DNA of 13,997 nucleotides, from the IMG/VR virus record IMGVR_UViG_2609459774_000005, positions 1-13,997 of that record, one strand, 5' to 3'. Below are positions 1-13,799 of this stretch, in pieces. The DNA comes from a virus. Taxonomy: Duplodnaviria > Heunggongvirae > Uroviricota > Caudoviricetes. Both the position numbers and the translations under genes were made by a program. Position 1 is the stretch's first letter, and every line of letters starts with the position of its first letter. The notes beneath the pieces are model-generated. The model had not been told where the DNA came from and searched no databases. It saw nothing but the letters and a program-made list of their open reading frames with translations.

Positions 1-1314
1 CTAACCCACTGATTTTAATAAGTCTCTTGTGTCACTTTGGTGACCATGGGACATCATTGGGACATAATCTGCCAGCTTCTGATTCAGCATTGCGATCTGT
101 TCTGCATTACTGTCAGTCATCCATGCTCCGTATACATTGAATACCATCTGGGCACTTGCATGGCCCATCTGGCTGGCAATGAAGCTTGGGTTTGCTCCGG
201 CAGATAATGACCAGCACGCATAAGTGTGTCGTGACTGGTATGCTTTCCGGTGCCTGATGCCCGCACGCTTAACGGCTGTTTCCCATGAGTCGCCAATAGA
301 ATCTACCTTGTAGATAAAACCGACCTGTTTGCTTTTTCTAACCACCTGGGGGTTAAATACGAAAGTACATTCATGATTCACTGAGCGCCCATATTCACGT
401 AGTTGAACCTTGATGTGGTGCTGCTTACCCAGTCTTGTCATTTCAGCCTGATTTTTCAGGACACTGATAGCGGGCTGGATAAGATGCACAACCCTGTTTG
501 TACTTGCTTCAGTTTTAGGTAGAGTGAACTCACTGAGTTTCGTATAATTGCGCCTGATAGTAATAGTTCCTGCTTTCAGATCGATATCTTCCCAGGCCAG
601 GGAGACCAGTTCACCGTGACGCATTCCTGTGTACACAGCCAATGACCACAGGTTTTTCGTCTGCTGATGTCGGCAAGCATCTATCAGGCGAATAAATTCG
701 TCACGAGTTAGCGGATCTGGCTCTGCCCTGGCTCTTTTAAGAGGCTTAATTCCCTGGAAGGGATTTGCTTCTAAGTAACCGTGATCTGCAGCAAACTGAA
801 ACATTCCAGCGATAGTTGTCATGTAATAATTTACAGTAACGACGCTCCGTCCTTTTGCTGCTGCTTTGTTTTTCGTTGAATTCTGATACCCAGTCAGTAA
901 ATCTTTCCTGATATACAGCAATTCCTCTTTGGTTACCGATGACACCAGTCTGCTGCCTCCAATTTTCGGAACCATCGTTCTTGCAACGGATTCATAGCGA
1001 TTGAATGCATTTGCAGAGATTTCCATTCGTTTCAGATCCAGCCACTTTTCTTCAAGTTCCTTCACCGTAATTTCTTTTTTACTTACCCCAAAAGCCTGAA
1101 GGTTGGGGGAGTCAGGGAACTGTGCAGCATAATCAAAGCTTCCTGTGCGGATGGCAAAACATACCGATGTCCTCAGTTCCCCGGCGATCTTCCTGTTCTT
1201 GGCAGTGTCAGGGACACCAAGATTTTCCCTGACACGTTTACCTTTAAAATTAAACCAGATGCGTAATGTGCCGCCGTGGTTTTCGACGCCTGTTGGATAT
1301 TTGACTTTATCCAT
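1..1314 (-). CDS. int: Tyrosine recombinase / phage integrase (437 aa)
   Basis: Complete ORF whose stop codon is the first three bases of the window. The C-terminal region has the H-x-x-R box (SRHTYA) and a downstream Tyr (NVYGAWM) typical of tyrosine recombinases. Its position and orientation directly downstream of an excisionase-like gene fit an integration module. Confidence 0.9.
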   Translation of the reverse strand: MDKVKYPTGVENHGGTLRIWFNFKGKRVRENLGVPDTAKNRKIAGELRTSVCFAIRTGSFDYAAQFPDSPNLQAFGVSKKEITVKELEEKWLDLKRMEISANAFNRYESVARTMVPKIGGSRLVSSVTKEELLYIRKDLLTGYQNSTKNKAAAKGRSVVTVNYYMTTIAGMFQFAADHGYLEANPFQGIKPLKRARAEPDPLTRDEFIRLIDACRHQQTKNLWSLAVYTGMRHGELVSLAWEDIDLKAGTITIRRNYTKLSEFTLPKTEASTNRVVHLIQPAISVLKNQAEMTRLGKQHHIKVQLREYGRSVNHECTFVFNPQVVRKSKQVGFIYKVDSIGDSWETAVKRAGIRHRKAYQSRHTYACWSLSAGANPSFIASQMGHASAQMVFNVYGAWMTDSNAEQIAMLNQKLADYVPMMSHGHQSDTRDLLKSVG

Positions 1315-1369
1315 TGATACCTCCAGACGCCCAAGAGCGATACGAGCTTACATATTTCATGATATTAAA

Positions 1370-1606
1370 TCACCTGGGTTGTTTGTTTTTCATTGAGGCG
1401 ACCCAGGCATCTATTGCTTTTCTGTTATACATACATTCACTGGAAGGCTTTGGATTACCGTCTGGTGATACGTGAATATACTCTCTTCCAACCATCCAGC
1501 ATTCTTTCCGGGCCCGAAGAATTGTGCCTGGTTTGAGCCCGGTAATTGCGATAAGAACGCTTTCACAAACCCATTCATTGGGAGCCAGTTGAATCACATT
1601 GCCCAT
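1370..1606 (-). CDS. xis: Excisionase (lambda Xis-like, 78 aa)
   Basis: Small basic protein immediately upstream of int on the same strand. The segment ILRARKECWMVGREYIHV resembles the lambda Xis region ending in DGREYLFH. Confidence 0.7.
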   Translation of the reverse strand: MGNVIQLAPNEWVCESVLIAITGLKPGTILRARKECWMVGREYIHVSPDGNPKPSSECMYNRKAIDAWVASMKNKQPR

Positions 1607-1764
1607 GCATTACCTCACACAACACTCAGCCCACGGCAGTGGCACCACACTTCAAACATTCGTTTCACAATTTCACGACAGTAGAAGCCGTCAACATCTC
1701 GCGTCAGGTCATAGCGATTGCCGTAACGCTGGCGCACCCATAGCTCAAACGCTTTATTCATTCT

Positions 1765-2007
1765 TTACTTCCTTTTCATGGCCCGTAATTTTTTCAGATG
1801 AGCTTCCTGCTCTGTTTCTGCCAGAATTTGTCGGTATTCCTGGTGATCAATCCGTTCAAACAGTTCATTGAAATCGTTTATTTTTACTGACTGTGTTCGC
1901 CCATCAATTCTTCTGTACAACACAGTGTTGTTTATGCAGCGAATAATTATTACCGGGTAACCGGCACTGTCGGTATACAGTTGTCCCTGATTAATCAAAG
2001 CGAACAT
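1765..2007 (-). CDS. Hypothetical protein (80 aa)
   Basis: The ORF-track reading frame is trimmed to the internal ATG at 2007, which is preceded by AGGAGA. The longer start would overlap the upstream gene by about 90 nt. Confidence 0.5.
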   Translation of the reverse strand: MFALINQGQLYTDSAGYPVIIIRCINNTVLYRRIDGRTQSVKINDFNELFERIDHQEYRQILAETEQEAHLKKLRAMKRK

Positions 2008-2038
2008 TTTTTCTCCTGCTCTCTGAATAGTGAGAACT

Positions 2039-2410
2039 TCAGAGCCGTATGTTTGTAGCGGGTTCAATACTGATAATTTCTGCTGAGATAAGCATCCCGG
2101 CAAGCCAGAGTTCTCCGGACAGGTCTTCATCCTGACATATCAGTTCGCCAATATTAATGGTGGCCATGATATCTGTTTCCCCTGTACGCTCATCCTCGAC
2201 TTCTTCATAAGGCAGTGTTGCGTACAGGCTTTCAATAGCGCAACTGATAACATCGAGTCCGGTCAGGTTGCCACCAACAGTGACTTCGAATGTTTCGCGG
2301 TATTCCCATTGCCCGAAAGTTAATCGAATGGTTTGTTTCGCCATGCGTCCGCATGACGTCAGATTTGGGTCATAGTTCATTATTTGCGGTTGAGTATTAT
2401 GAGTGTTCAT
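2039..2410 (-). CDS. Hypothetical acidic protein (123 aa)
   Basis: Intact ORF in the leftward operon with no motif I recognise. Confidence 0.5.
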   Translation of the reverse strand: MNTHNTQPQIMNYDPNLTSCGRMAKQTIRLTFGQWEYRETFEVTVGGNLTGLDVISCAIESLYATLPYEEVEDERTGETDIMATINIGELICQDEDLSGELWLAGMLISAEIISIEPATNIRL

Positions 2411-2451
2411 CTGCTTTTCCCTTAGCCCGACGGCCTGCCGGGCATATTAAG

Positions 2452-3279
2452 TTATTTAACCTGGATAAATGGTGTATTGGCACCGCTGGTCATGTATTGC
2501 GGCAGCGTGCCGTTCCATTTATTGATGGCTTCCAGCTCCATAACACCGGGGTTCTGACGCAGAGCTTCACCGCGTAAACGAATAGCATCGGCTTCAGCCT
2601 GGGCTTTTGTGCGAATCGCATCAGCCTGTCCGGCAGCTTCCGCGCGCAACATGTTGGCTTCCGCTTCGCGCTGTTTTACTTCCTGCTCGCGTTGCAGAGT
2701 TTTCTGGTTCGCCGTGACTTTGGCATTAATGCTGTCGATAACAGTAGGCGGGTACTCCGGCTTACCCACATATGAGAGGCTTATTACCTGAATACCGATG
2801 GGCGTCATTTCTTCCTGAATGTCTTTAAGAGCTGCATCCAGCAGCTCAGGCTTGCCGCCGTCGATAAATTTGTCGGTGGTCATTTTGCTGGTCAGTCGGT
2901 TGAGTGCGTCGGCTATCTTCTGGCGCAGGTCGGTGTCGGTAATGTCGTCCACGCCTTTGCGGTAGGTCTGAAAGACTGTGGTAACTTTGGATGGATCAAC
3001 CTTGTAGGCTACTCCGATGTGGTAACCAATGGTTGTTCCATCGCTCATCTGGAAACTGAATGGATCATCGTAGGTCTTCATCTGCTTAAAGGTCGGGAAG
3101 ATATAAACTTCAGTGTTCCAGCCTGTCCAGTAGCGACCAACACCGACCACTTCACCGACGCCTTTGTCGTCGCCAAGTTTGTTGACTTTGATGCCCACAT
3201 TACCAGGCTCAACACGATCACAACCGACAAGGCCAATGGCAGGCAGAACAATGGCTAAAGAAAAAATAATTTTTTTCAT
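2452..3279 (-). CDS. SPFH / band-7 (prohibitin-flotillin-like) lipoprotein (275 aa)
   Basis: N-terminal signal peptide with lipobox LVGC (MKKIIFSLAIVLPAIGLVGC). The central region has SPFH-like character and the C-terminus is an Ala/Glu/Arg/Gln-rich coiled coil (QREQEVKQREAEANMLRAEAAGQADAIRTKAQAEADAIRLRGEALRQ), as in band-7 proteins. The start codon overlaps the stop of the upstream membrane ORF (ATGA) and is preceded by AAGGAT. Confidence 0.85.
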   Translation of the reverse strand: MKKIIFSLAIVLPAIGLVGCDRVEPGNVGIKVNKLGDDKGVGEVVGVGRYWTGWNTEVYIFPTFKQMKTYDDPFSFQMSDGTTIGYHIGVAYKVDPSKVTTVFQTYRKGVDDITDTDLRQKIADALNRLTSKMTTDKFIDGGKPELLDAALKDIQEEMTPIGIQVISLSYVGKPEYPPTVIDSINAKVTANQKTLQREQEVKQREAEANMLRAEAAGQADAIRTKAQAEADAIRLRGEALRQNPGVMELEAINKWNGTLPQYMTSGANTPFIQVK

Positions 3280-3464
3280 CTTTTATCCTTAGTGAAAGAA
3301 AGCCCCTTATAAATGGTATAAATACATGGCGGGGTTAGAAACGTCAGTGCAAAGCCAGAAATCACCGCTACCGTATCCTTCATTGATATCAGAAACGGGA
3401 CGAGCAATCCGTAAATACATGCGATAATTGCCAGTGATATAACTATTCTGAAATAAATGTTCAT
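3276..3464 (-). CDS. Small two-helix membrane protein (62 aa), candidate NfeD-like partner of the SPFH protein
   Basis: Two hydrophobic stretches (IVISLAIIACIYGLLVPFLI and VAVISGFALTFLTPPCIYTIY). Strong RBS (GGAGG) before the ATG; stop overlaps the SPFH start. Confidence 0.6.
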   Translation of the reverse strand: MNIYFRIVISLAIIACIYGLLVPFLISMKDTVAVISGFALTFLTPPCIYTIYKGLSFTKDKR

Positions 3465-3524
3465 GGTCCTCCTGCTGTATTCAGCTTGCCTTATTTAATT
3501 GCGTCATGGTTAATTTCGTTTACG

Positions 3525-3917
3525 TCAGAATGGTTTTGTTGCCATCAGTTCGTAATATCCGGCGCTCCATGTGTCATATTTTCTGAACCATTTTTCTGTA
3601 TACTGTTTCCTGGCGATGAGTCTGCGCAGTCGTCTGATTGTTCGCTGGTGTGCGCGGGTGTACTCTGTGGTTGATTCTCCACGTTTCCATATTTCATTCC
3701 CGTTGAAGATAAAACGCTTGTCAGGATGGCGTTGTCGGAATCCTGAACGTTCAAAAGCGCGGGTGGTCATAAAGAATGCCAGGTAACGAATTGCCGTTTT
3801 TCGAGTGAGGCATTTTTTTGTTCTTCCGTGATGTGTTACAAAAAATAACGGGCCGACGGGTGTATCATGTTTCTGTAATGCCTGGTCAATGGCGCTGGCG
3901 GTGCGGTTGTCGATCAT
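3525..3917 (-). CDS. Hypothetical basic protein (130 aa)
   Basis: Intact ORF whose start overlaps the stop of the upstream gene (ATGA). Arg/Lys-rich C-terminus. Confidence 0.5.
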   Translation of the reverse strand: MIDNRTASAIDQALQKHDTPVGPLFFVTHHGRTKKCLTRKTAIRYLAFFMTTRAFERSGFRQRHPDKRFIFNGNEIWKRGESTTEYTRAHQRTIRRLRRLIARKQYTEKWFRKYDTWSAGYYELMATKPF

Positions 3918-4132
3918 TTCTTTATTTCTCCCGAATAACGTTCATGACTCATTATTTCCCAGTTCCGGCCGTCGTCTTTCGATAACAGCCGCCAGCGACG
4001 GTTAACCTTCAGACTGAGATATCCGTTGCGCTGTATCCGATGCGGGAATATACGTCGGCATCTGTACCGCCGCAGGACCAGCAACGCCTGCTGGTGGACC
4101 CACTCAGGAATTCGCGTTGCTGTTAATGTCAC
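3914..4132 (-). CDS. Hypothetical basic protein (72 aa), apparent GTG start
   Basis: The ORF track starts at a GTG at 4132 that is preceded by AGGAGG at a 6 nt spacing. It overlaps the upstream gene by 29 nt. The protein is Arg-rich, so the call is uncertain. Confidence 0.4.
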   Translation of the reverse strand: MTLTATRIPEWVHQQALLVLRRYRCRRIFPHRIQRNGYLSLKVNRRWRLLSKDDGRNWEIMSHERYSGEIKK

Positions 4133-4319
4133 TGGTTTCCTCCTGAGCAGGTGCTGTTATCTGATACCCCGCTCTTTCTGCCAGCCATATGAATGTATCC
4201 ATGCTGGCAATCAGCTCTCCATCGCGGACTTTGCAGACATCTGTTACCTGGCCATTTTCAATTGTCATAACGATCTGCACTTTTTCGTGCACAACAGATA
4301 CAGGGGATAAATTAGCCAT
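4104..4319 (-). CDS. Hypothetical protein (71 aa)
   Basis: Intact ORF whose ATG overlaps the stop of the upstream gene by 1 nt (TGATG). Confidence 0.45.
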   Translation of the reverse strand: MANLSPVSVVHEKVQIVMTIENGQVTDVCKVRDGELIASMDTFIWLAERAGYQITAPAQEETSDINSNANS

Positions 4320-4678
4320 CAGTTAATTCCTCCGCTGATATATTTTTCTTTCGCGTAATCAATAACCTCTTGTAAAAGGTTGTCTATAATTAACTTTCCG
4401 GTTTCAGCCTGGTATTCAGTATGTTGATTAATCCCGATGGCATTCTGGTATGCAGTTCGGAATTCTGTTTCACCCTCCACTCGACCCAATTCACCACGGG
4501 TAATATCTTCAAAGCGCAACAGCAACTGGTTTATAAACTGTTCTGTTATTTCTATGGTCGTAATGTTCCCATCCAGAAGGTCAACAATAAGCAGATCACC
4601 ACCTGTTTTACGTTTTATTCGATGGAGTGCTGCAACAGCTATACGGCGACGATATGTATTAATGGGTTCATGTGTCAT
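4319..4678 (-). CDS. Hypothetical protein (119 aa), first gene of a four-gene coupled cluster
   Basis: Intact ORF downstream of a 195 bp intergenic region (4679-4873). Confidence 0.5.
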   Translation of the reverse strand: MTHEPINTYRRRIAVAALHRIKRKTGGDLLIVDLLDGNITTIEITEQFINQLLLRFEDITRGELGRVEGETEFRTAYQNAIGINQHTEYQAETGKLIIDNLLQEVIDYAKEKYISGGIN

Positions 4679-4873
4679 TTGTTATTTCCCGTATGCTTTA
4701 CGCAGAAATAAGCAGGCAATATGTATGTAATTTTCACCGTATTGTGCAATAAGACAGGCGGTCTTGTGTGATGCCATATTCTTTATAAAAGTCATAATAA
4801 ATCCTCCTGTGGATTAAGATTGTAACAATCCCCGGCGATAAAACCGCAATAAACGTTCAGAGCATATTTGTTG

Positions 4874-5239
4874 TTATTGCGCTAATTCTTTTTCGGCAGC
4901 AGTTTTTGCATACTCACATGCAAAATTCAGAATTTCGCTGCCGAGTGTTTTCGTTTCGTGATTACTGGACATATGTAATACCTGTGTTGCATGCAATAAA
5001 TGATAAACATTTACCGCAAATGAATCAGGCTCCAGACAAATGCCTTCGTAATTATCTTGCTGTGAGGTTGTTTCTGTCATTGCTTCTGAAGTGCATGCGA
5101 GCCTGTTTTTGACAATTCTCTTTCCTCTAATCACTATATCGGCAACATCTATTGCCTTTACAACCTCCGGGAGAAGTTCCGGGTTTGTATAATCAAAGTC
5201 ATCAACATGGAGAACAGTTATGTTTTCGAACTTTTTCAT
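4874..5239 (-). CDS. Hypothetical protein (121 aa) in an AT-rich island
   Basis: Intact ORF with AGGA before the ATG. Visibly AT-rich codon usage compared with neighbouring genes. Confidence 0.5.
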   Translation of the reverse strand: MKKFENITVLHVDDFDYTNPELLPEVVKAIDVADIVIRGKRIVKNRLACTSEAMTETTSQQDNYEGICLEPDSFAVNVYHLLHATQVLHMSSNHETKTLGSEILNFACEYAKTAAEKELAQ

Positions 5240-5418
5240 GGCTTCCTCAGCTGACTTATATGTCCTGCTATATAGCGAGTCTCAGAAGTGTTTTCATATT
5301 GAGACTGTTTCCGCAATGATTGATAATCAGTTACCGGATGCTTATCCGTGTCCGGCGCACGACCACACGTAGCCGCGTGTTGGTCCCCATTTTCAATTCA
5401 GCTCTCAATGGAGGATAA

Positions 5419-5646
5419 ATGATTAACGCAGAGCAACTCGAAAAAGAGATTTCAGAACTCAAAAAAGAATTAATTTGGCACAAAGTTGCTATCTCCGCAT
5501 TAATTCGTCAGGTAGTTTCACCTGAAGATAAAGTAAAGTTTATGAAGCAGTTCTCATCTTCATCAAAGGAGTTTTTCACTGACGAGGTTCATCCAGAGGC
5601 TGGATTTTGGATCCGTCAATTATTTTCGCAAGATAAGCGTAAATAG
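5419..5646 (+). CDS. Hypothetical small protein (75 aa), possible coiled coil
   Basis: Strong RBS (GGAGG, 5 nt spacer) before the ATG. The N-terminus (EQLEKEISELKKELIWHKVAISALIRQ) looks heptad-like. Its 3' end overlaps the convergent gene 5576-5818 by 71 nt. Confidence 0.4.
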   Translation: MINAEQLEKEISELKKELIWHKVAISALIRQVVSPEDKVKFMKQFSSSSKEFFTDEVHPEAGFWIRQLFSQDKRK

Positions 5647-5818
5647 CGTCATCAATACTCGCGTCGCTCTTGAATTTAAGAGCGATGCTCTTTATATCCT
5701 CTGAAATTATTACCAGATCACCATATGTTATATTTTTATTATTGCGCGCAGTGCTTTTTTGTATGAAATCAAGCAATTCACCAATGAGACAAATATGGTA
5801 AGCATTACAGTTTTTCAT
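5576..5818 (-). CDS. Hypothetical protein (80 aa), translationally coupled to the upstream HTH-domain gene
   Basis: Trimmed to the internal ATG at 5818, which overlaps the stop of the 5815-6276 gene (ATGA). AT-rich. Confidence 0.5.
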   Translation of the reverse strand: MKNCNAYHICLIGELLDFIQKSTARNNKNITYGDLVIISEDIKSIALKFKSDASIDDAIYAYLAKIIDGSKIQPLDEPRQ

Positions 5819-6276
5819 GCGCAGATATCCTTTGCTGCCGTTTCGCCAGTTAACAGCCACATCGCATCGCAGCCAAGAATATTTGCCAGTGGGATAAGCA
5901 TACTGATAGTTGGTTCATACTCTCCGCTCTCCCACTGGATGATAATTTCTTCATCGAGATCGAGCAGCCTGGCGAGTTCGGCGGTTGTTAAGCCGCAGGC
6001 TTCGCGTTGGGTGCGAAGGTTAACCAGCCAGCTTTCAGGGAAGGATTGTTTTTGTTGCGCAGGAGAAGCAGCAGATAGAGCATATTCATGGATAAATTCC
6101 ATTACCTCAATGCCCAGTTCCTTTGAGCGAGCACAATCCAGAAGATGGAATGTGCGTACAGCACTTAGCAAATTTGCAATATTTAATGCAAAGGAATCAA
6201 GTTCTAAGCCCTTAAGCGTAACACAGCCGCAGTTGATAAAATTAGTTGTTTCTGGAGTTGCTTTTAGTGTCTTCAT
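5815..6276 (-). CDS. Two-domain protein (153 aa): unknown N-terminal domain plus C-terminal XRE/Cro-type helix-turn-helix
   Basis: The C-terminal segment LRTQREACGLTTAELARLLDLDEEIIIQWESGEYEPTISMLIPLANILGCDAMWLL matches the XRE-family HTH pattern. Start set at the ATG at 6276, which has GGTGGA upstream. Confidence 0.65.
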   Translation of the reverse strand: MKTLKATPETTNFINCGCVTLKGLELDSFALNIANLLSAVRTFHLLDCARSKELGIEVMEFIHEYALSAASPAQQKQSFPESWLVNLRTQREACGLTTAELARLLDLDEEIIIQWESGEYEPTISMLIPLANILGCDAMWLLTGETAAKDICA

Positions 6277-6324
6277 ATATCCACCAACAATTTTAAATTG
6301 AATCAAATCAAGTTATAATTGATG

Positions 6325-6358
6325 GTGCGATATTATGTTTTGGGAAATAGCCTGTCAA
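6325..6358 (-). promoter_or_regulatory. Candidate sigma70 promoter for the HTH-protein/partner operon
   Basis: On the minus strand, a perfect TTGACA (6358-6353) is followed about 16-17 nt later by an ATAATA/TAATAT -10-like hexamer. It lies between the cI terminator and the HTH gene start. Confidence 0.45.
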
Positions 6359-6388
6359 GAAAAAATTGATATCGTATATTTCAGGCAG

Positions 6389-6409
6389 AAAAAAAACGGG
6401 CAAAGCCCG
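6389..6409 (-). terminator. Intrinsic terminator directly downstream of the repressor gene
   Basis: On the minus strand, hairpin CGGGC-TTT-GCCCG is followed by a run of eight T, 14 nt after the cI stop. Confidence 0.6.
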
Positions 6410-6422
6410 TTAGAATCAAAGA

Positions 6423-7112
6423 CTAACCAAATCTGTTTATGTTGAATGGTACTGATGAGATCACTTTAGACTGGATATAAAGCAGAGCTAACCCCTCTTT
6501 TTCGATGCTCCATGGTTGATAATTGGGGTTATCAGATAACACCATGATTTTGCTTCCAATTTTTTGAAGCCTTTTCACGTAGCATTCTCCATCAAAACAA
6601 AATGCATAAATACCATCGCCATCAAAATAAGTTACTGTCTTATCAAGAAAAAGAAGGTCGCCAGGTGAGATTGTGGGAGCCATACTGTCTCCTCTGGCGT
6701 TACCTATTTCTATATTTTTGAATGCCCGATTTCCAACAAGACGTCGGGCATATTCAGGATCAAGTTCTATTGAGCGCACTACATCTATCAAGTCACCACG
6801 GACATGAGTTCCATCACCGCAACTAAACTCAACATCAAGGACATTAAACACGACGCTATCTGTTCTTGTCTGGTGTTTCTCTTGCGAGGAAAAGGTTGGT
6901 GAGGAGTCTTCACCTAAGAACCAGGATTGTGGATAACCGCTAATCTCTGATAAATGCGCGAGCTTATCACTCCGTGGAAATGTTTTTCCTGTTGTCCAGT
7001 ACTGCACTGATTGCGCACTCACACCTAACTTGCGGGCCAGTTGAGCCTGAGTCCATCCTTTTGCTTTCAGCATCGCGGCTATTCGATTTTCCGTGTTTTT
7101 GACGTTCTTCAT
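6423..7112 (-). CDS. cI: CI-like phage repressor (HTH plus LexA/S24 peptidase domain, 229 aa)
   Basis: N-terminal HTH (TQAQLARKLGVSAQSVQYWTTGKTFP) and C-terminal S24-like region with the GDSM motif (NARGDSMAPTISPGD) and a downstream Lys (CYVKRL). Divergent from a Cro-like gene. Start trimmed to the ATG at 7112; the track's start at 7118 is a TTG. Confidence 0.9.
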   Translation of the reverse strand: MKNVKNTENRIAAMLKAKGWTQAQLARKLGVSAQSVQYWTTGKTFPRSDKLAHLSEISGYPQSWFLGEDSSPTFSSQEKHQTRTDSVVFNVLDVEFSCGDGTHVRGDLIDVVRSIELDPEYARRLVGNRAFKNIEIGNARGDSMAPTISPGDLLFLDKTVTYFDGDGIYAFCFDGECYVKRLQKIGSKIMVLSDNPNYQPWSIEKEGLALLYIQSKVISSVPFNINRFG

Positions 7113-7245
7113 GACCAAATCCTGTGGGTTTCTTTACAAGGATAAATCTTTACTTGATTTTAGTGTATTCGATCCTTTTGTAACTTGCATGTTAATTTAA
7201 ACTTGATGTATTCTTGATTTATAAAGTTAATATTGGTGCTTTGTT
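7113..7245. promoter_or_regulatory. Divergent immunity-region promoter/operator segment between the cI-like and Cro-like genes
   Basis: AT-rich intergenic region with repeated CTTGAT-containing motifs (ACTTGATTTTAG, ACTTGATGTAT, TCTTGATTTAT) and an imperfect inverted repeat TTACAAGGAT ... ATCCTTTTGTAA. Exact -35/-10 hexamers could not be assigned. Confidence 0.5.
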
Positions 7246-7536
7246 ATGGAAGGAAATGATTACGACAAACTTCGTGCATTAATTGCGCAAAATGCCATAG
7301 CGCGAAATCTTGGTGTGACGCCGCAAGCGGTGAATCAGTGGTTTTCAAAAAGCACAATTCCTGCTCGTTTCGTTTTACGAGTATGTGAAGTAGTTGCATG
7401 GAAGGTTACGCCTCATGGCTTAAGGCCAGATCTTTATCCTCACCCTGAAGATGGAATTCCTAACTTGTTACGCAAAAGCCTAAATCCAAGTTCACCACAC
7501 AGAGCGGATGGAATACACGCAGGAGATAAACAATGA
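7246..7536 (+). CDS. cro: Cro-like / YdaS-family transcriptional regulator (96 aa)
   Basis: Segment LGVTPQAVNQWFSKSTIPARFVLRVCEVVAWKVTPHGLRPDLYP fits the YdaS/Cro-like family pattern. First rightward gene, divergent from cI. Confidence 0.75.
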   Translation: MEGNDYDKLRALIAQNAIARNLGVTPQAVNQWFSKSTIPARFVLRVCEVVAWKVTPHGLRPDLYPHPEDGIPNLLRKSLNPSSPHRADGIHAGDKQ

Positions 7537-8240
7537 ACATCGCAATTTTTAACGGCAAAGTATCCATGACCAGCGTTGAAATTGCAGAGCTGGTGGGTAA
7601 ACGTCATGACAATGTGAAACGCACTATTGAAACATTAGCCAAAGGTGGCGTTGTCCGGTCTCCTCAAATTGAGGTTTCCGAAAGAATCAATAACTTAGGT
7701 TTTAAAGTTCAATATGAGCATTACCTGTTTGAAGGAGAACAAGGTAAGCGCGACAGCATCATTGTCGTCGCACAGCTCTGTCCTGAATTCACTGCTCGCC
7801 TGGTAGATCGCTGGCGCGAACTGGAAGAACAGATCCGTAAGCCAATGAGCGAAATCGAAATGGTTGCCGCGATGGCTCTTGAAGCAGTTCGTCAGCAGAA
7901 ACGGATCACTCAGGTGGAAGAAAAAGTCAGCCACGTTGCTGAAACAGTCGAGCAAATTAAAAAGGGCACTATTCGTGAGGGCTATGCCGGATATCGCCAA
8001 CTGAAAGCAAAAACCGGTTTGTCAGATGATAAATGCCGCAATCTGGTGAACGCCTATCAGATTCCTACAGACACCCATGAGTTCATGACGCCGGACGGAT
8101 TGTTGTCACGTCGAGCAATTGTTGCTGTGGAACCGTTTATGGCTGCTTTTTATCGGGTTATGGAGGAAGCAGAACCGCGAGGGACTCGCTGGTATCACCC
8201 GAAAATGGGGTTATTTCAGGTTATTGGTTGGCAGCGGTGA
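7533..8240 (+). CDS. Rha-family phage regulatory protein (235 aa)
   Basis: N-terminus (GKVSMTSVEIAELVGKRHDNVKRTIETL) matches the Rha-domain signature. The start overlaps the cro stop (ATGA). Confidence 0.8.
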   Translation: MNIAIFNGKVSMTSVEIAELVGKRHDNVKRTIETLAKGGVVRSPQIEVSERINNLGFKVQYEHYLFEGEQGKRDSIIVVAQLCPEFTARLVDRWRELEEQIRKPMSEIEMVAAMALEAVRQQKRITQVEEKVSHVAETVEQIKKGTIREGYAGYRQLKAKTGLSDDKCRNLVNAYQIPTDTHEFMTPDGLLSRRAIVAVEPFMAAFYRVMEEAEPRGTRWYHPKMGLFQVIGWQR

Positions 8241-8264
8241 AAAAAAAGCCGGGAGTAACCCGGC
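8240..8264 (-). terminator. Hairpin with T-run on the minus strand (A-run on the plus strand) immediately after the Rha gene
   Basis: Plus strand reads eight A then GCCGGG-agtaa-CCCGGC with no downstream T-run. In the minus orientation it is a canonical intrinsic terminator; for plus-strand transcripts it lacks the U-tract. Confidence 0.5.
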
Positions 8265-8371
8265 TCACTCAACATCAATAACGGGGAGCTGTTTCGCATA
8301 AAACGGTTCCGAAACATCCAAGAACAGTTCTAAAGATATCAGCAGCTATATGATCATTTCAAGACCAAATA

Positions 8372-8483
8372 TTGATTCTGCAATTTCGGGACGTTACACT
8401 GTCTCCGCACCTTATAAAGCGGGTGCCGGGGGTCGCAGCCCGGAATTGCATACGGCGATATACGACGCGCCAGCGTCTTTTTT
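8372..8483 (+). ncRNA. Candidate leader or small RNA unit: promoter, two hairpins and an intrinsic terminator
   Basis: TTGATT (8372-8377), 17 nt spacer, TACACT (8395-8400). Downstream hairpins GCACC/GGTGC (8407-8426) and CCGGG/CCCGG (8426-8443), then terminator GACGC-gcca-GCGTC followed by six T (8464-8483). Predicted transcript about 75-80 nt. Not verified by folding. Confidence 0.3.
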
Positions 8484-8649
8484 ATCGTCCGCGCTCACGC
8501 ACGCCAGAATTATGGTGGGCTGGGCAGGGGAGCCGAAAGGCTCGCCGGTTTCCGTATGCGCCGGTACTGCGAACCCTGTTCAGTCTGCCACCAGTGAGTT
8601 TCGCAGCTCCGGTGGTGGAAGTTATCCATTGCATACGGAGGCTGCCATC

Positions 8650-9012
8650 ATGGCTACAGTCCCAACTTCCCCATACCTGAAAATTGAAGTTGTCAACGGC
8701 AAGGCCGTTATTTTCTCCCTGCATGTTGCCTGCCACTTTAAGCGCATGCACCAGAACATCGTCGACAAAATCGAGTATCTGAACTGCTCACGCGAGTTTT
8801 TTACCCGCAATTTCATACCGGGTACTTATCACATCTACGGTGACTCCCTGCGTGGTTATTACATCACCCTTGATGGCCTGATGATGCTTCAGCTTGGGTT
8901 AAGTCTGCGCACAATGCGGTACTACGAGAGCTGCATTGAAGCATTCCATGAGGCAGAGAACAGCCTGAATCTTACCGCTTTCTGCTGTAATCAATGGGAG
9001 GTGCGCCCATGA
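8650..9012 (+). CDS. Hypothetical protein (120 aa), first gene of the replication operon
   Basis: Start assigned to the ATG at 8650, preceded by GGAGG at 8637-8641. The upstream 100 in-frame codons are low-complexity Ala/Gly/Ser/Pro-rich and are treated as noncoding. Confidence 0.5.
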   Translation: MATVPTSPYLKIEVVNGKAVIFSLHVACHFKRMHQNIVDKIEYLNCSREFFTRNFIPGTYHIYGDSLRGYYITLDGLMMLQLGLSLRTMRYYESCIEAFHEAENSLNLTAFCCNQWEVRP

Positions 9013-9233
9013 TTCGCCGCGTCGTTAATTCCCTGTATCACCGATACAACCGTTGCCCCCGTGTGGGGCAGTGGTTCGCCACCAGCAACGGTCACGTTCT
9101 GCGGGTTTGCCTAGTCAACGCTGAAAGCCAGAAAGTCGTGTGCGAACTACAGGGGCGTAGCTACACCATCAGTTACCCTCTGGCGGTATTTCTGTCTGGA
9201 AAAATGTTTAAGCGTCTGGGAGGTGTGGCGTGA
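9009..9233 (+). CDS. Hypothetical Cys-containing small protein (74 aa)
   Basis: ATG at 9009 preceded by GGGAGGTG and overlapping the upstream stop. Confidence 0.5.
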   Translation: MIRRVVNSLYHRYNRCPRVGQWFATSNGHVLRVCLVNAESQKVVCELQGRSYTISYPLAVFLSGKMFKRLGGVA

Positions 9234-9529
9234 ACTGTTTTCAGTTTGTGTGCGGATGTGCTTTCGATAACCCGATTCAGCGCCTGATTATGTTGCGTGT
9301 TTTGATGTCGGGTTCTTCAGACGGTGAAGGCGAGAGAGTTATTGATCATCAGGTGCTTGCTGATTTCTGCTGTTGTTCTAAGCAAGCGATATTCAGGGAA
9401 ACCCTGGCACTGGAAAGAGCTGGTTATCTTCATATCCAAAAAATTGCAACGCTTACTATTGATGCAAAAGCCAGACTACAACCTGCGCGTGGCTACACAA
9501 TTCTCATGCCGCGGAAGGAGGTTGTATGA
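9230..9529 (+). CDS. Hypothetical protein (99 aa), GTG start, possible winged-helix DNA-binding protein
   Basis: GTG at 9230 preceded by GGAGGTG (6 nt spacer) and overlapping the upstream stop (GTGA). The winged-helix guess rests only on the segment SKQAIFRETLALERAGYL. Confidence 0.45.
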   Translation: MNCFQFVCGCAFDNPIQRLIMLRVLMSGSSDGEGERVIDHQVLADFCCCSKQAIFRETLALERAGYLHIQKIATLTIDAKARLQPARGYTILMPRKEVV

Positions 9530-10518
9530 GCCGTTACGCCCCCACACCGGAAGTTATGGCTATTGGTCAAATTAATATTTCCGGCAATGTTACACCTGCG
9601 AACTGGTGGAAATATATTCGACTACCCAGTGGGCGTCCGGATGCGACGGCTATCGCTCTGCTTTCAGAGATCGTTTACTGGTACCGCCCGACAGAGGTCA
9701 GGGATGAGCACACCGGAGCGTTGCTGGGATATCGCAAGCGTTTTCAGGGCGACAAACTGCAAAGAAGCTACCAGGCGTTTGCTGAGCAGTTTGGTTTCGG
9801 GAAAAGGGAAACCGCAGATGCGCTGAAGCGTCTGCGCGATGCAGGGTTTATTACTCTGGATTTACGCACGGTGGAAATGCTCGATGGGGTGAAATGCAGC
9901 AATATTTTGTTTGTCGGGATCAACCCACAGGCAATTGCGGCCATCACCACACCTTCTTCTGTTTCGCCAGAAAGTAACAGCAATAATGCAATCAGCGATA
10001 CAGCTATTACGTTAAAACGGAACACCCCCCGACGTCATAACGGAACAGGGGATACGCCGAATGTTGATACAAATACAGAGATTACTACAGAGATTACAAC
10101 GGAGACTAAAAACACTATTGATGCATCCGCTGACGCGTCTGCGCCAGCGCGTTCTGCCCGACAGGAATATTCACCGGAATTTGAACAGGCCTGGCAGGAA
10201 TATCCCAAACGTGCTGGTGGCAATTCCAAGTCAGCAGCCTTCAAAGCCTGGAAAGCCCGTATCAGGGAGGGAATAAAACCGGAGACCATGCTTGATGGCG
10301 TGAAGCGGTATGCCGCCTGGGTACGTGCTACAGGAAATACCGGCACACAGTTCGTGAAGCAGGCTGCGACGTTCTTTGGACCCGATCGTCACTTCGAAGA
10401 TTACTGGCAACAGCCAGCCGCTCACGGAGGTGGGCGACAGCGACAGGTCGATGTCCTGGCTGGCCTGGGAGCCATGTCTGACAAATTCGGTAAATCCAGT
10501 AACAAATTGACATTCTGA
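9526..10518 (+). CDS. Phage replication initiation protein (O-like replisome organiser, 330 aa)
   Basis: N-terminal region resembles phage replisome-organiser domains. The central part is a low-complexity Thr/Glu-rich linker encoded by tandem DNA repeats. Conserved-looking C-terminal domain (EYSPEFEQAWQEYPKRAGG...FFGPDRHFEDYWQ). Start overlaps the upstream stop (ATGA). Confidence 0.75.
   Translation: MSRYAPTPEVMAIGQINISGNVTPANWWKYIRLPSGRPDATAIALLSEIVYWYRPTEVRDEHTGALLGYRKRFQGDKLQRSYQAFAEQFGFGKRETADALKRLRDAGFITLDLRTVEMLDGVKCSNILFVGINPQAIAAITTPSSVSPESNSNNAISDTAITLKRNTPRRHNGTGDTPNVDTNTEITTEITTETKNTIDASADASAPARSARQEYSPEFEQAWQEYPKRAGGNSKSAAFKAWKARIREGIKPETMLDGVKRYAAWVRATGNTGTQFVKQAATFFGPDRHFEDYWQQPAAHGGGRQRQVDVLAGLGAMSDKFGKSSNKLTF
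10075..10110 (+). repeat. Tandem 12 bp iteron-like direct repeats inside the replication initiator gene (candidate origin)
   Basis: ACAGAGATTACT (10075-10086), ACAGAGATTACA (10087-10098) and a degenerate ACGGAGACTAAA (10099-10110), followed by an A-rich stretch. They encode the TEITTEITTETK segment. Confidence 0.5.
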
Positions 10519-10519
10519 G

Positions 10520-10873
10520 GTGACAGCGATGATGACGATTGACCAACGTGAGAAACAAACAAGACTACAGGCGCGAATGGATGAGTTACGGGCAGAGATT
10601 GCATTTGCTCAGAATGGCGAAAAGCCATGGCCTTACCGTGCCTGTCGGGAATCTGAAGGGGTTGGATGCTGCGAAAAACACGGTAAATATCGTACGCATA
10701 TACTGGTGTGGGATGATCGGCAGGGGGGCGCTGTCTCAAAAATTTCCCGCTGTCGGGAGCATCACAACGAGCTTCATGCGGATCCGCTGGTATTCGAAGA
10801 AAAGCATGGTTCCCAGGTTGATTTAATTTTTCATTTTCTTGATCACGCCTTTGCAACCGGCGTGCTTGGGTAA
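10520..10873 (+). CDS. Hypothetical Cys/His-rich protein (117 aa), nin-region-like
   Basis: RBS GAGGTGA before the ATG. Clustered Cys/His residues (CRESEGVGCCEKHGKYRTH ... CREHHNELH) suggest metal binding; no definite family assigned. Confidence 0.5.
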   Translation: MTAMMTIDQREKQTRLQARMDELRAEIAFAQNGEKPWPYRACRESEGVGCCEKHGKYRTHILVWDDRQGGAVSKISRCREHHNELHADPLVFEEKHGSQVDLIFHFLDHAFATGVLG

Positions 10874-10885
10874 AAGAGGTTACTG

Positions 10886-11245
10886 ATGCGTATAGAGTTT
10901 GTTTTGCCTTATCCGCCAACGGTGAACACCTACTGGCGACGTCGTGACAACACATATTTTGTATCAAAAGCCGGTGAGCGTTATCGCCGGGATGTGGCGC
11001 TAATTGTTCGCGAGCAGCGGCTGAAATTAAACCTGTCCGGACGGCTGGCGATAAAGGTGATTGCAGAGCCACCGGATAAGCGCCGTCGTGACCTGGACAA
11101 TATTCTGAAAGCACCACTGGATGCACTGACACATGCGGGGTTGCTTATCGACGACGAGCAGTTTGATGAAATCAATATTGTGCGCGGACTGCCTGTTCCT
11201 GGTGGTCGGTTGGGGATAAAAATCACAGAGCTGGAGTGCGCATGA
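10886..11245 (+). CDS. rusA: RusA-family Holliday junction resolvase (119 aa)
   Basis: N-terminal LPYPPTVNTYWRRR and central RRRDLDNILKAPLDALTHAGLLIDD match the RusA pattern (LPWPPSNN...RRRDLDN...KA.FDAL). Typical nin-region position. Confidence 0.9.
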   Translation: MRIEFVLPYPPTVNTYWRRRDNTYFVSKAGERYRRDVALIVREQRLKLNLSGRLAIKVIAEPPDKRRRDLDNILKAPLDALTHAGLLIDDEQFDEINIVRGLPVPGGRLGIKITELECA

Positions 11246-11931
11246 ATAACCAGTATTTACAGTTTGTTCGTGAGCAGCTCATTATCGCCACCGCCGATTT
11301 GAGTGGGGCAACAAAAGGTCAGCTTGAAGCCTGGCAGGAGAATGCCATGTTTGATACAGGACGTTACAGACGTAAAAAAATCCGGTACCGCGATAAGGTC
11401 ACTGGAAAAATGGTAACGCTGGATAATCCACCGATCCCGGGAAAGCAATCGCTGGCGAAAGGTTCATCAATTGCCCTGGTCAGTCCGGTTGAGTTTTCGA
11501 CATCATCATGGCGACGCGCCGTTCTGTCTCTTGAAGAGCATCAGAAGGCGTGGGTGCTGTGGGTATACAGTGAAAATCCGAGTTGGGATTATCAGGTGGT
11601 CATTGCGAAATGGGCGTGGGATAAGTTTCAGGTGCATTTTGGCACCAGAAAAATTACAGGGAAAACGCTTGAGCGTCTGAAGAAATTAATCTGGCTGGCG
11701 GCGCAGGATGTCAGGGGGAGGATTACTGGGCGTGACGTCTACCAGCGACAGGAACTTGCCAGACTGTGTGGAGTTAAGCCTGACAACTGGAGCCATAATT
11801 ATGCGAACTACTGGCGTGAGATGTGCGACATTTTTAAGAAACTCGATACAGAATCCTTGATTTGCACCGTGAAAATGAGATCGCAACAAAAAGCGACCTT
11901 TTCACGACGAGATATTGCAAAAGTCAATTAA
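11242..11931 (+). CDS. Putative late-gene antiterminator (Q-like), 229 aa
   Basis: Call is by position only: last gene of the rightward early operon, immediately after rusA and immediately before a strong intrinsic terminator. No Q motif was verified. Start set at the ATG at 11242, overlapping the rusA stop (ATGA). Confidence 0.55.
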   Translation: MNNQYLQFVREQLIIATADLSGATKGQLEAWQENAMFDTGRYRRKKIRYRDKVTGKMVTLDNPPIPGKQSLAKGSSIALVSPVEFSTSSWRRAVLSLEEHQKAWVLWVYSENPSWDYQVVIAKWAWDKFQVHFGTRKITGKTLERLKKLIWLAAQDVRGRITGRDVYQRQELARLCGVKPDNWSHNYANYWREMCDIFKKLDTESLICTVKMRSQQKATFSRRDIAKVN

Positions 11932-11977
11932 ATCGCATACATTTTATGTAAATGTGATATTTTGCCGTATAGTGTGT

Positions 11978-12002
11978 AAACCCGCTTAAATGCGGGTTTT
12001 TT
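11978..12002 (+). terminator. Strong intrinsic terminator downstream of the Q-like gene
   Basis: AAACCCGC-ttaaat-GCGGGTTT followed by a T-run (11997-12002), 47 nt after the Q-like stop codon. Confidence 0.75.
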
Positions 12003-12032
12003 GCTTAACTCTGTGGACCTTTTTATCTGTAG

Positions 12033-12057
12033 TTGTAAGATATGGATATTCTTACAA
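12033..12057. promoter_or_regulatory. Perfect 8 bp inverted repeat (TTGTAAGA, 9 nt spacer, TCTTACAA) upstream of the kinase gene
   Basis: Palindrome at 12033-12057 between the terminator and the kinase start codon. Candidate operator or 5'-UTR hairpin. Confidence 0.4.
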
Positions 12058-12075
12058 TTTAGGTCGGTGAGCTTA

Positions 12076-12840
12076 ATGGAAGAACAGCACGGTAATTACT
12101 TTATAAAACGAATTCAGTTGATTGGAAGGGGTGCATTTGGCTTTGTTGAACACGTTAAGGTTTACAACCTCAACAAGGGTGAATGTGGGGATTATGCTAG
12201 AAAGGTTTTAGCCCCCGAAAAACCAGAGCTTTTGGCGCAAATAGAGCAGTTTAGAAGGCGTTTTAAAAGGGAGGTCGTGTATCAATCACATTGCGTACAT
12301 AGCAATATTGTTCCTATTTATTTGTGCGATTTGTTTGCCGAGAATCCATGGTTCATTATGGATAAAGCAGAATGTGATCTTGAGCACGAAATAACGAACA
12401 ACCTTCTTACAACAGATCAAAAAATTTCAATAGTGAAAATGGTATTAGATGGTGTAGCTCACATCCATGCGAAAGGCTATTTACACAGAGATATAAAACC
12501 ATTTAATGTCTTGCGATTTAGCGACGGAACATACAAGGTGTCTGATTTTGGTCTGGTAAAAGATACAAATCCCGAAGGGGATACCACTAAATTGACCGAG
12601 ATCGGTACCCGTATGGGAAGTACAAGATATATGGCTCCCGAGATTTTATATAATGCCGAGTATTCAGTTAAGACTGATGTTTATGCGGTGGGGCGGTTAA
12701 TTGAGGACTTAAATTTAGATGATAAAAAAATAAAGCCTATCATAGCGAAGTGTACCAGGATGGATAAAGATGATAGATATCAGACAATAGATGATGTGGC
12801 GTTTGATTTTGTGCATTCTTTTTTAAGGAGTGAGTCATGA
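12076..12840 (+). CDS. Hanks-type (eukaryotic-like) Ser/Thr protein kinase (254 aa)
   Basis: Catalytic signatures present in the canonical order: Gly-rich loop IGRGAFGFV, invariant Lys in YARKVL, alpha-C Glu in FKREV, catalytic loop LHRDIKPFN, SDFG, YMAPE, and DVYAVG. Start trimmed to the ATG at 12076. Visibly AT-rich. Confidence 0.9.
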   Translation: MEEQHGNYFIKRIQLIGRGAFGFVEHVKVYNLNKGECGDYARKVLAPEKPELLAQIEQFRRRFKREVVYQSHCVHSNIVPIYLCDLFAENPWFIMDKAECDLEHEITNNLLTTDQKISIVKMVLDGVAHIHAKGYLHRDIKPFNVLRFSDGTYKVSDFGLVKDTNPEGDTTKLTEIGTRMGSTRYMAPEILYNAEYSVKTDVYAVGRLIEDLNLDDKKIKPIIAKCTRMDKDDRYQTIDDVAFDFVHSFLRSES

Positions 12841-13580
12841 TTCAGCTGATAGCGACTTCATCATTCTCGTATCCAAAAGAACCAGGTAGGGTCAACGAAG
12901 ATTCATTGCTTCCTCCCAAAATTGTAGGGGATGGCATCTTATTTGCCGTAGCTGATGGTGTAGGTTCATACACTGGTGCCAGTCAGGCTTCATCAATGGC
13001 AATTGCTGAACTTTCAGCATTGACAAGCTTATCTTTTGACACAGTTCCGGATGTATTTGATGAAGTTAAGCGAAAGGTTATGTCGTTAGCTGATGTTAAT
13101 GATGAGTTCGATAAAGCTGCTACTACACTTACGTTTTGTTATGTTTGTGATAGCGGAATTATTATTGGTCATATTGGTGATTGTCGTTTGTATTGCATTG
13201 GAGAGAAGAAAGCATACCAATTGACGAAGGACGATACCAGGCATCAGATGCTAATTGATCAGAATATTTTTAAACCCAGAGATTTGAAGGATAAACCGGG
13301 CAAAAATATCTTAACGACGGCTATAGCCTCAAATGTTGATATGGAATACGACTGTGATTTTATCACATGGAAAGATTTACCTAGTATTAACGGGGTATAT
13401 CATCTGTGTATCATGTCTGATGGGGTTCATAACGTTTGGGAAAAACGCCCCAGATTTACATCAAATACGATGAGTAATAGTCAGAAGTTTTCTAATGGCA
13501 TTTTGCGTCGTATAGAGAGAGCCGGACCTGATGATGACTTTTCTTTAGTAAGTATAATGGTGCGTGTGACGTCAGATTAG
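12837..13580 (+). CDS. PP2C-family (PPM) Ser/Thr phosphatase (247 aa)
   Basis: PPM motifs present: VNEDS near the N-terminus, FAVADGVG (DGxGG-type metal-binding motif), IGDCRLY (GDSR-type), MSDGVHN and C-terminal GPDDDFS. The start overlaps the kinase stop (ATGA), indicating translational coupling. Confidence 0.85.
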   Translation: MIQLIATSSFSYPKEPGRVNEDSLLPPKIVGDGILFAVADGVGSYTGASQASSMAIAELSALTSLSFDTVPDVFDEVKRKVMSLADVNDEFDKAATTLTFCYVCDSGIIIGHIGDCRLYCIGEKKAYQLTKDDTRHQMLIDQNIFKPRDLKDKPGKNILTTAIASNVDMEYDCDFITWKDLPSINGVYHLCIMSDGVHNVWEKRPRFTSNTMSNSQKFSNGILRRIERAGPDDDFSLVSIMVRVTSD

Positions 13581-13650
13581 TTGTATAAACTCAGTAGGGA
13601 ATGCTAATTTCACATACAACATAGTTAAAGAAAACTTAATTTTAATGTAA

Positions 13651-13677
13651 AAAGGCTGCCCTCAGGCGGTCTTTTTA
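13651..13677. terminator. Bidirectional-looking intrinsic terminator after the phosphatase gene
   Basis: AAA-GGCTGCC-ctca-GGCGGTC-TTTTT: a 7 bp stem including two G-U wobble pairs, flanked by an A-run upstream and a T-run downstream. Confidence 0.55.
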
Positions 13678-13799
13678 TGCTCGAAAATTGATGCAGTACG
13701 TTAAACGCGCTGGTGGTTGCGAATACCGGTCTTTCAGCTTGCTGGCTTTTTAGACAAGAGTTATTGGTATGTCACGTTAACCAGAAAAGGGAAAAAGGC

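Follow-up and report, generated by a model that had tools for sequence, protein, structure and literature searches.

A two-helix membrane protein gene is translationally coupled to the gene of a predicted SPFH lipoprotein in a phiP27-type prophage and in other proteobacterial phages

A pair of overlapping genes in a tailed-virus sequence (IMG/VR record IMGVR_UViG_2609459774_000005, positions 1 to 13,997; hereafter the window) raises the question of what a phage gains from an SPFH protein that is encoded together with a very small membrane protein. The role of bacterial SPFH proteins is still unclear, and so is that of the phage copies. The window, a stretch of 13,997 nt, is a phiP27-type lambdoid prophage of Escherichia coli, and the pair lies at 2452-3464 on its minus strand. 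The features of the pair are as follows.

3276 to 3464, minus strand: small partner gene, an open reading frame (ORF) of 62 aa; PHROG 1130; two-helix transmembrane (TM) hairpin
2452 to 3279, minus strand: SPFH gene, an ORF of 275 aa; Pfam Band_7; lipobox
3468 to 3473, minus strand: Shine-Dalgarno sequence AGGAGG of the small gene, 3 nt 5' of its ATG (3462-3464), as read from the sequence
3276 to 3290, minus strand: translational-coupling junction, comprising AAGGA (3286-3290) within the 3' end of the small gene and the ATGA overlap (3276-3279)
3220 to 3279, minus strand: signal peptide and lipobox (MKKIIFSLAIVLPAIGLVG/C), with Cys20 as the predicted lipidated N-terminus and Asp21 at +2
2656 to 3216, minus strand: SPFH/Band 7 domain, residues 22-208 by Pfam (PF01145)
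2554 to 2748, minus strand: single long helix in the AlphaFold2 model, residues 178-242, rich in Ala, Glu, and Arg; aligns with the coiled-coil region of HflK
2455 to 2553, minus strand: conserved C-terminal tail, residues 243-275, with columns that are invariant among close homologues

Both ORFs are genuine. The 62-aa ORF was intact in 79 of 80 related viral contigs, and the ratio of non-synonymous to synonymous substitution rates (dN/dS) was 0.10-0.12 for the small ORF and approximately 0.04 for the SPFH gene, indicating purifying selection on both. Based on this conservation and selection, the pair is real and not the product of chance ORFs. The start codon of the SPFH gene (3277-3279) shares the sequence ATGA with the TGA stop codon of the small ORF (3276-3278), and AAGGA lies 6 nt upstream of the SPFH ATG. 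The initial annotation of this locus had proposed that a two-helix membrane protein is translationally coupled to the SPFH protein, and both the ATGA overlap and the hairpin model described below agree with it. The gene pair corresponds to PHROG 200 and PHROG 1130, and is thus a known kind of module that has already been catalogued.

The product of the larger gene matched Pfam Band_7 (PF01145) with 107.3 bits against a gathering cut-off of 23.6 (E = 1.2e-30), covering positions 2-176 of the 176 in the model, and matched the PHROG 200 profile ('lipoprotein') with an E value of 7.8e-114. The AlphaFold2 monomer model has a predicted local distance difference test (pLDDT) value of 78 overall. Its alpha/beta SPFH core, at approximately residues 19-175, has pLDDT values of 80-94 and is followed by the 65-residue helix 178-242, while the C-terminal residues 249-275 have values below 50 and are disordered in the monomer. 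Foldseek searches of the PDB returned full-length matches, first to HflC/HflK (7vhq, E = 4e-13) and then to erlin, prohibitin, stomatin, flotillin, and QmcA. The E values for HflC/HflK, erlin, prohibitin, and stomatin were 1e-10 to 4e-13 at a probability of 1.00. Together with the Pfam match and the lipobox LVGC, these results uphold the initial assignment of the larger gene to an SPFH lipoprotein; the fold, for which that annotation had called for structure prediction, is present. Judged by the model, helix 178-242 is the counterpart of the segment that forms the coiled-coil wall of SPFH cages. The tail that follows contains residues that are invariant among close homologues, namely L249, I252, KWNG at 254-257, P260, P270-F271, and K275, and by analogy with solved SPFH cages it may serve as an oligomer cap segment.

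By sequence, HflK and HflC were likewise the best matches among solved structures and NCBIfam models. The scores fell far short of the equivalog cut-offs: 25.4 versus 134.4 bits for HflC (TIGR01932) and 22.0 versus 159.4 bits for HflK (TIGR01933). On sequence grounds, the phage protein is not an orthologue of either.

The SPFH protein begins MKKIIFSLAIVLPAIGLVG-C-DRVE, in which the lipobox L-V-G-C at residues 17-20 follows a KK n-region and a hydrophobic core. Using the pattern [LVI][ASTVI][GAS]C closing an N-terminal signal peptide, the lipobox was kept in 107 of 120 close homologues, 102 of which have Asp at +2. Asp at this position is the established signal for inner-membrane retention (Lol avoidance) in the sorting of E. 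coli lipoproteins, and by this rule the phage lipoprotein is predicted to be retained in the inner membrane. The initial annotation had described the lipobox and the very short partner as unusual. This did not hold: with the families catalogued as PHROG 200 and PHROG 1130 and with Cys-Asp so prevalent, they are the standard family form in phages of Gram-negative hosts.

Two other N-terminal forms were found. In the homologues from Gram-positive and archaeal viruses, an N-terminal TM helix replaces the lipobox. In a widespread subgroup of SSU5-like plasmid-phages (P0113-P0119, 276 aa), the lipobox Cys is replaced by Tyr (GIIGYDRVEPG) and the partner gene is retained; the proteins of this subgroup would be signal-anchored or simply periplasmic. 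The feature common to the lipobox, Tyr, and TM-helix forms would be an SPFH domain that faces outward from the cytoplasmic membrane, as in HflK/C.

The 62-aa partner matched the PHROG 1130 profile ('membrane protein') with an E value of 3.6e-23, and 20 of 30 members of the partner family matched it as well. The protein consists of two hydrophobic helices, modelled by AlphaFold2 as residues 2-26 and 31-61 on either side of a turn at 27-30 (pLDDT 80). Alignments revealed an invariant Pro23 at the end of helix 1, together with Ser27 and Gly37. The motif around the inter-helix turn, P-x-[LM]-[IV]-S-x-x-[DSN]-[ST], is conserved and reads P-F-L-I-S-M-K-D-T in the window. The termini are basic, including the C-terminus, and the conserved turn is neutral to acidic; by the positive-inside rule, the turn is thus predicted to face the periplasm.

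Searches with the 30 family members against Pfam, at E values of up to 1, gave scattered, chance-level matches to TM segments and no family for the partner. Two identities were considered and rejected. First, an NfeD (PF01957) or OB-fold domain was found in none of the 30 members, and all 62 residues of the window protein belong to the helical hairpin. Second, the partner has the outline of a class-II holin (two TM helices and a charged C-terminus), but it matched no holin family in Pfam or PHROG, and its gene lies in the early leftward operon. A profile of the partner family recovered 116 clusters at 90% identity and 830 representatives at 50% identity (E up to 1e-3). The 150 best-scoring of these representatives are all free-standing proteins of 45-133 aa, none fused to another domain.

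In proteobacterial phages, the partner is an obligate, translationally coupled companion of the SPFH protein. A PF01145 gene lay directly downstream of the partner gene, or overlapped it, in 17 of 17 loci, which were drawn from partner-encoding contigs across the whole range of E values and counted where the downstream gene could be evaluated. In phiP27, P88, RCS47, and a Klebsiella prophage, the SPFH gene directly follows a gene for a homologous two-TM partner, in most cases overlapping it by 4 nt. The same arrangement occurs in the N4-like phage MY01, an N4-like Alcaligenes phage, Burkholderia phage phiE125, Pseudomonas phages Pacha and PHB09, Agrobacterium phage OLIVR6, and the SSU5-like plasmid-phages. 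The overlap itself, [ATG/GTG/TTG]A, is kept in P88, the Klebsiella prophage, MY01, phiE125, Pacha, PHB09, and OLIVR6, and its conservation thus spans phages of alpha-, beta-, and gamma-proteobacteria. Each of these overlaps is preceded by a purine-rich stretch resembling a Shine-Dalgarno sequence, mostly AAGGA or AAGGAG, but AGGAAA in MY01 and AAAGGAAAG in OLIVR6. One natural variant (P0002, 347 aa) is an in-frame fusion of partner and SPFH protein. We found no earlier description of this strict linkage between an SPFH protein and a small, non-NfeD hairpin across proteobacterial phages.

The DNA of the pair was detected in 569 of 5426 complete E. coli genomes (approximately 10%), at 419 chromosomal and 241 plasmid places, and it is 99.8% identical to annotated RefSeq loci. 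It is common in the prophages of pathogenic E. coli, Stx phages included. The partner family extends from phages of E. coli to those of Agrobacterium, Burkholderia, Pseudomonas, and Alcaligenes. Using tblastn, SPFH homologues were found in 728 of 50,697 phage records (approximately 1.4%). Strictly virulent groups are among the carriers: the Schitoviridae (N4-like), Vequintavirinae (rV5-like), Ounavirinae (FelixO1-like), Kayvirus, phiCbK-like phages, crAss-like phages, and haloarchaeal tailed viruses. The pair is present in the P2-like phage P88 (gp11 and gp12) and in the P1-like phage RCS47, in which the 78-aa partner ORF is unannotated. The initial annotation had considered that the pair might be a widespread, conserved phage component of known function. 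It is indeed widespread and conserved, but no known function was found. In P1-like plasmid contigs (L100-L105, approximately 4230-4805), the SPFH pair lies approximately 700 nt upstream of a gene for a Tad2-like protein (PF11195), a family known as anti-Thoeris.

The two genes differ in how far they vary between phages. The scan of viral contigs gave relatives at 96-99% identity, and the diverse loci were taken from annotated phage records. Comparison of unrelated phage types gave 91-97% identity for the mature SPFH domain and only 21-26% for the partner and the signal peptide. The DNA homology between the window and P88 (L002) or RCS47 (L003) is confined to 2485-3231, the part that encodes the mature domain. 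The signal peptide and the last 10 residues of the SPFH protein co-vary with the type of partner, defining different allele groups. We considered functional covariation with the partner and rejected it: because the breakpoints coincide with the limits of DNA homology (2485-3231), the pattern is read as the footprint of recombination within the gene.

The direct orthologues of the pair are L05 of phiP27 and an unannotated ORF upstream of it, with 97% protein identity for the SPFH protein and 89% for the partner. L05 was first annotated as a 'putative serine protease' and is now a 'lipoprotein'. Positions 1-3455 of the window are collinear with phiP27 at 94.8% DNA identity, to within 10 nt of the start codon of the small gene. 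The operon upstream of the pair differs (window 3456-4681), and collinearity is lost until 4682.

As the initial annotation had it, the pair lies inside a leftward operon that ends in xis-int: the minus strand encodes every gene from approximately 6306 leftward, through xis (1370-1606), to int (1-1314). Starting from int and xis, the genes are those for DUF4222 and DUF5406 proteins, the SPFH pair, a phrog_1886 gene, and a gene for a ParE-like toxin. Two further features mark the other end of the block.

5815 to 6306, minus strand: gene for an HTH_3 protein, PHROG 4836 'CII-like regulator' (E = 5.8e-77); the nearest gene on the left of the cI-type repressor
6423 to 7118: cI-type S24 repressor gene

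As a test for a moron, the window was scanned for sigma-70 consensus promoters and for terminators; nothing was found to flank the pair, and terminators between the genes of the operon were limited to weak consensus matches. A GC hairpin that follows the SPFH stop codon (2425-2443) was rejected as a terminator, as it lacks a T-tract and its folding is not better than that of shuffled sequences (z = -1.46). Given the uninterrupted block of minus-strand genes and the lack of a bracketing promoter or terminator, the simplest reading places the pair on the early leftward transcript under repressor control. Preceding the CII-like gene are a strong, terminator-like hairpin (6411-6395, minus strand) and, after it, a promoter-like site of the form TTGACA-17-TAATAT (6358-6330). 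No N, CII, or CIII of the lambda type was recognised in the window.

Corresponding sites are found elsewhere. The module occupies early operons beside the immunity region in the temperate phages (the window, P88, and a Pseudomonas prophage). Its neighbours in the virulent N4-like and rV5-like phages are early or DNA-metabolism genes, and cell-wall hydrolase genes adjoin the SPFH gene of Kayvirus and that of a crAss phage.

The known system closest to the phage protein, by structure and by sequence, is the HflK/HflC-FtsH cage (PDB 7vhq, 7wi3, and 9cz2). The two share the SPFH core, the long helix, and a C-terminal segment, and the phage SPFH domain is predicted to lie, like that of HflK/C, on the periplasmic face of the inner membrane. 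The differences are considerable. The phage protein is 17-18% identical to HflK/C and below the equivalog cut-offs; it is predicted to be lipid-anchored instead of held by an N-terminal TM helix; the phage operon contains one SPFH gene and not a K/C hetero-pair; the helix of approximately 65 residues compares with a longer coiled coil in HflK/C; and the transmembrane element is a separate protein of 62 aa.

The initial annotation had also likened the pair to SPFH-NfeD operons, such as QmcA-YbbJ (PDB 8z5g) and archaeal PH1511/PH1510. The likeness extends to an SPFH gene that is co-transcribed with an adjacent membrane-protein gene, to a membrane protein that is thought to sit with the cage, and to QmcA as a significant fold match of the phage SPFH protein. 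It ends with the partner, which has two TM helices only and no NfeD or OB-fold domain, and with the gene order, in which the partner comes first, the reverse of qmcA-ybbJ. QmcA faces the cytoplasm, opposite to the phage SPFH protein, which is predicted to be exported. As NfeD-SPFH operons are defined, the pair is not one of them.

Two phage systems invite comparison. Kayvirus MbpS is a phage SPFH membrane protein and a distant homologue (approximately 26% identity), and its gene likewise abuts an upstream gene for a small membrane protein, MbpV. Unlike the window pair, MbpS and MbpV belong to phages of a Gram-positive host and are encoded in the lysis region; MbpS has a TM anchor and no lipobox, and MbpV has one TM helix and is of a different family from the partner. 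The Kayvirus authors proposed that MbpS and MbpV help the Sec export of Tgl. PM0222 of Pasteurella multocida, compared here by description and not by sequence, is a prophage-borne SPFH (HflK/C-like) protein of a Gram-negative host, and it is the only experimentally studied prophage SPFH case found in our literature searches. It can be detected both in the lysogen and in vesicles of the outer membrane, is reported to be a TLR1/2 agonist, and its deletion attenuates virulence; unlike the window protein, it has been reported as a virulence factor carried on such vesicles. Searches of PADLOC-DB 2.0 at E values of up to 0.01 matched no model to either protein of the pair or to the products of the neighbouring genes; the only match was to a distant kinase (12001-12840).

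These data are best explained, at about an even chance in our estimate, by a split HflK/C-like cage, made early in lytic development, that would corral a host complex and in this way condition the infected cell's inner membrane. The two genes would act as one module, with translational coupling providing their products at a ratio of about 1:1. The larger product would be exported and lipid-modified at Cys20, and Asp at +2 would hold it at the inner membrane, on the periplasmic side. The SPFH protein would oligomerise by way of the long helix and the C-terminal tail, in the manner of HflK/C, prohibitin, erlin, and stomatin, and the resulting ring or dome would cover a patch of membrane. The 62-aa hairpin would cross the inner membrane twice, leaving its two ends in the cytoplasm; its conserved turn would meet the SPFH domain in the periplasm, and it would supply the transmembrane part that HflK/C carry in cis; it is in this sense that the cage would be split. 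Transcribed with the repressor-controlled early leftward operon, the module would act after infection or induction and not in the quiescent lysogen. Its role would be to condition the host inner membrane, most likely by corralling a host inner-membrane complex, for which FtsH would be the leading candidate purely by analogy.

Several points weigh against the split cage. The support is computational throughout, the AlphaFold2 models are those of monomers, and early expression is deduced from gene position. Arg at +3 may weaken retention by Asp at +2, and the window protein reads C-D-R-V-E; position +2 is Glu, Asn, or Ser in some of the more distant homologues, and the E. coli rule would send these to the outer membrane. 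The rV5-like phages place an extra ORF of 54 aa between the partner and SPFH genes, and the homologues of FelixO1-like phages, crAss phages, and Kayvirus have other neighbours, or none, instead of a PHROG 1130-type partner. Homologues exist in archaeal viruses, and archaea generally lack FtsH. Finally, the HflK/C-like protein of the Pasteurella prophage was found in outer-membrane vesicles.

The pair might instead mediate superinfection exclusion in the infected or induced cell, blocking DNA entry or the periplasmic steps of secondary phages much as T4 Imm and Sp or T5 Llp do. Many phage lipoproteins are exclusion factors. The placement among early genes in both virulent and temperate phages suits such a role, as do the predicted location in the envelope, facing the periplasm, and the rapid divergence of the partner (21-26% identity) beside an SPFH core that stays at 91-97% between phage types. 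However, neither a PADLOC model nor a PHROG annotated as an exclusion protein matched the pair. That the family is conserved from phages of Staphylococcus to viruses of haloarchaea points to a generic membrane function and not to one specific to a receptor or an injection machinery, and the strong purifying selection on the mature SPFH domain (dN/dS 0.04) is unlike that of arms-race proteins. We therefore regard exclusion as unlikely, though it deserves consideration.

A role in the lysis-lysogeny decision was suggested in the initial annotation. According to this explanation, the pair mimics or perturbs HflK/C and alters the activity of FtsH on a regulator of the CII/CIII type, tuning the decision of the prophage. 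HflK/C are the closest relatives in sequence and structure and share the predicted periplasmic orientation; the pair is in the early leftward operon, the place of cIII in lambda; a gene labelled 'CII-like regulator' by PHROG is present at 5815-6306; and the idea has been put forward by other authors for SPFH genes of phages. The relationship to HflK/C is nevertheless distant (22-25 bits against HflK/HflC cut-offs of 134-159, and 17-18% identity), the window yielded no homologue of lambda CII or CIII, and the 'CII-like' label rests on the HTH_3 domain. The same module occurs in virulent N4-like, rV5-like, FelixO1-like, and Kayvirus phages and in phages of the P1 and P2 types, which use no CII switch; a dedicated CII-type role is therefore unlikely as the general function of the module. 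For the prophage itself, we consider such tuning quite improbable.

We give still less credence to a helper in lysis timing or in the action of envelope enzymes, in which the SPFH protein would be a scaffold for organising or restraining the lesions that a holin-like small protein makes in the membrane, or would aid the export of a phage cell-wall hydrolase, as proposed for MbpS/MbpV. The Kayvirus genes for the SPFH protein and the small membrane protein do lie between the endolysin and Tgl transglycosylase genes, a crAss phage has the order SPFH gene, 3-TM protein gene, peptidoglycan hydrolase gene, and the partner has the class-II-holin-like outline noted above. In proteobacterial phages, including the window, the pair is however distant from the lysis cassette and among early genes, and no holin family of Pfam or PHROG matched the partner.

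Lysogenic conversion, by which a prophage-expressed lipoprotein would change the surface of the host or, like PM0222 according to the report on it, influence animal immunity as a TLR2 agonist, has in its favour the virulence phenotype and vesicle location of that protein, the filing of PHROG 1130 under 'moron, auxiliary metabolic gene and host takeover', and the frequency of the pair in prophages of pathogenic E. coli including Stx phages, but we consider it highly improbable, as the pair has no bracketing promoter or terminator, lies inside repressor-controlled early operons, and is carried equally by virulent phages, and as PM0222 is placed beside this SPFH subfamily by description only.

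The window contains further features of the prophage, among them cro/YdaS-like, Rha/Ant-like, replication, RusA, and Q genes. The ParE-like toxin (PF24732, E = 1.6e-17) is encoded at 3914-4132 on the minus strand and overlaps an upstream ORF of 71 aa (4104-4319, phrog_340); the two are likely a toxin-antitoxin pair within the early leftward operon, in the 3456-4681 block that differs from phiP27. Just downstream of the Rha/Ant-like gene (7533-8240), Rfam models identified isrK (57 bits, 8407-8483) and C4 antisense RNA (80 bits, 8508-8595) on the plus strand, and the region 8407-8595 looks like a P1/P7-type C4-ant 'immunity I' module within a lambdoid prophage. An ORF of 220 aa (8350-9012) overlaps both RNAs, and its 5' end is probably not a gene. 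At 12001-13580 on the plus strand, downstream of the Q antiterminator gene (11236-11931), a Ser/Thr kinase gene (Pfam Pkinase, E = 2.8e-33) overlaps a PP2C phosphatase gene by 4 nt. The kinase (12001-12840) matched PADLOC mad6 (E = 3e-40), as well as PD-T4-6 and Stk2, and the two genes are a candidate exclusion or defence moron of the prophage, reminiscent of stk of 933W.

Literature searches combining SPFH with prophage, anti-phage, superinfection, holin, or defence, or using phage HflK or mbpS, found no functional study of the family, only speculation and the PM0222 paper. The idea that phage SPFH genes act through HflKC, FtsH, and CII has been published as speculation at least three times, and one of these papers already notes the SPFH gene in obligately lytic phages. 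Several genome papers describe the function of the phage SPFH protein as unknown or borrow the HflKC/lambda CII account.

The window does not bring a new kind of gene. What it reveals is that the form of the SPFH gene in proteobacterial phages is a strictly linked module of a lipoprotein and a hairpin of 45-100 aa, which is common to lambdoid, P1-like, P2-like, N4-like, and rV5-like phages of E. coli, all of them genetically tractable. In a bolder version of the split cage, which we hold with low confidence, a lipid-anchored periplasmic SPFH dome and a separate transmembrane palisade would form a two-piece HflK/C cage that hundreds of temperate and virulent phages use early to fence off a patch of the host inner membrane, capturing FtsH or another complex or blocking the DNA of competing phages. 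If true, the module would be a general, so far uncharacterised device for host takeover and a tractable minimal model for SPFH cages. If the module corrals FtsH or blocks superinfection, this would explain the presence of the gene in approximately 10% of complete E. coli genomes and approximately 1.4% of phage records.

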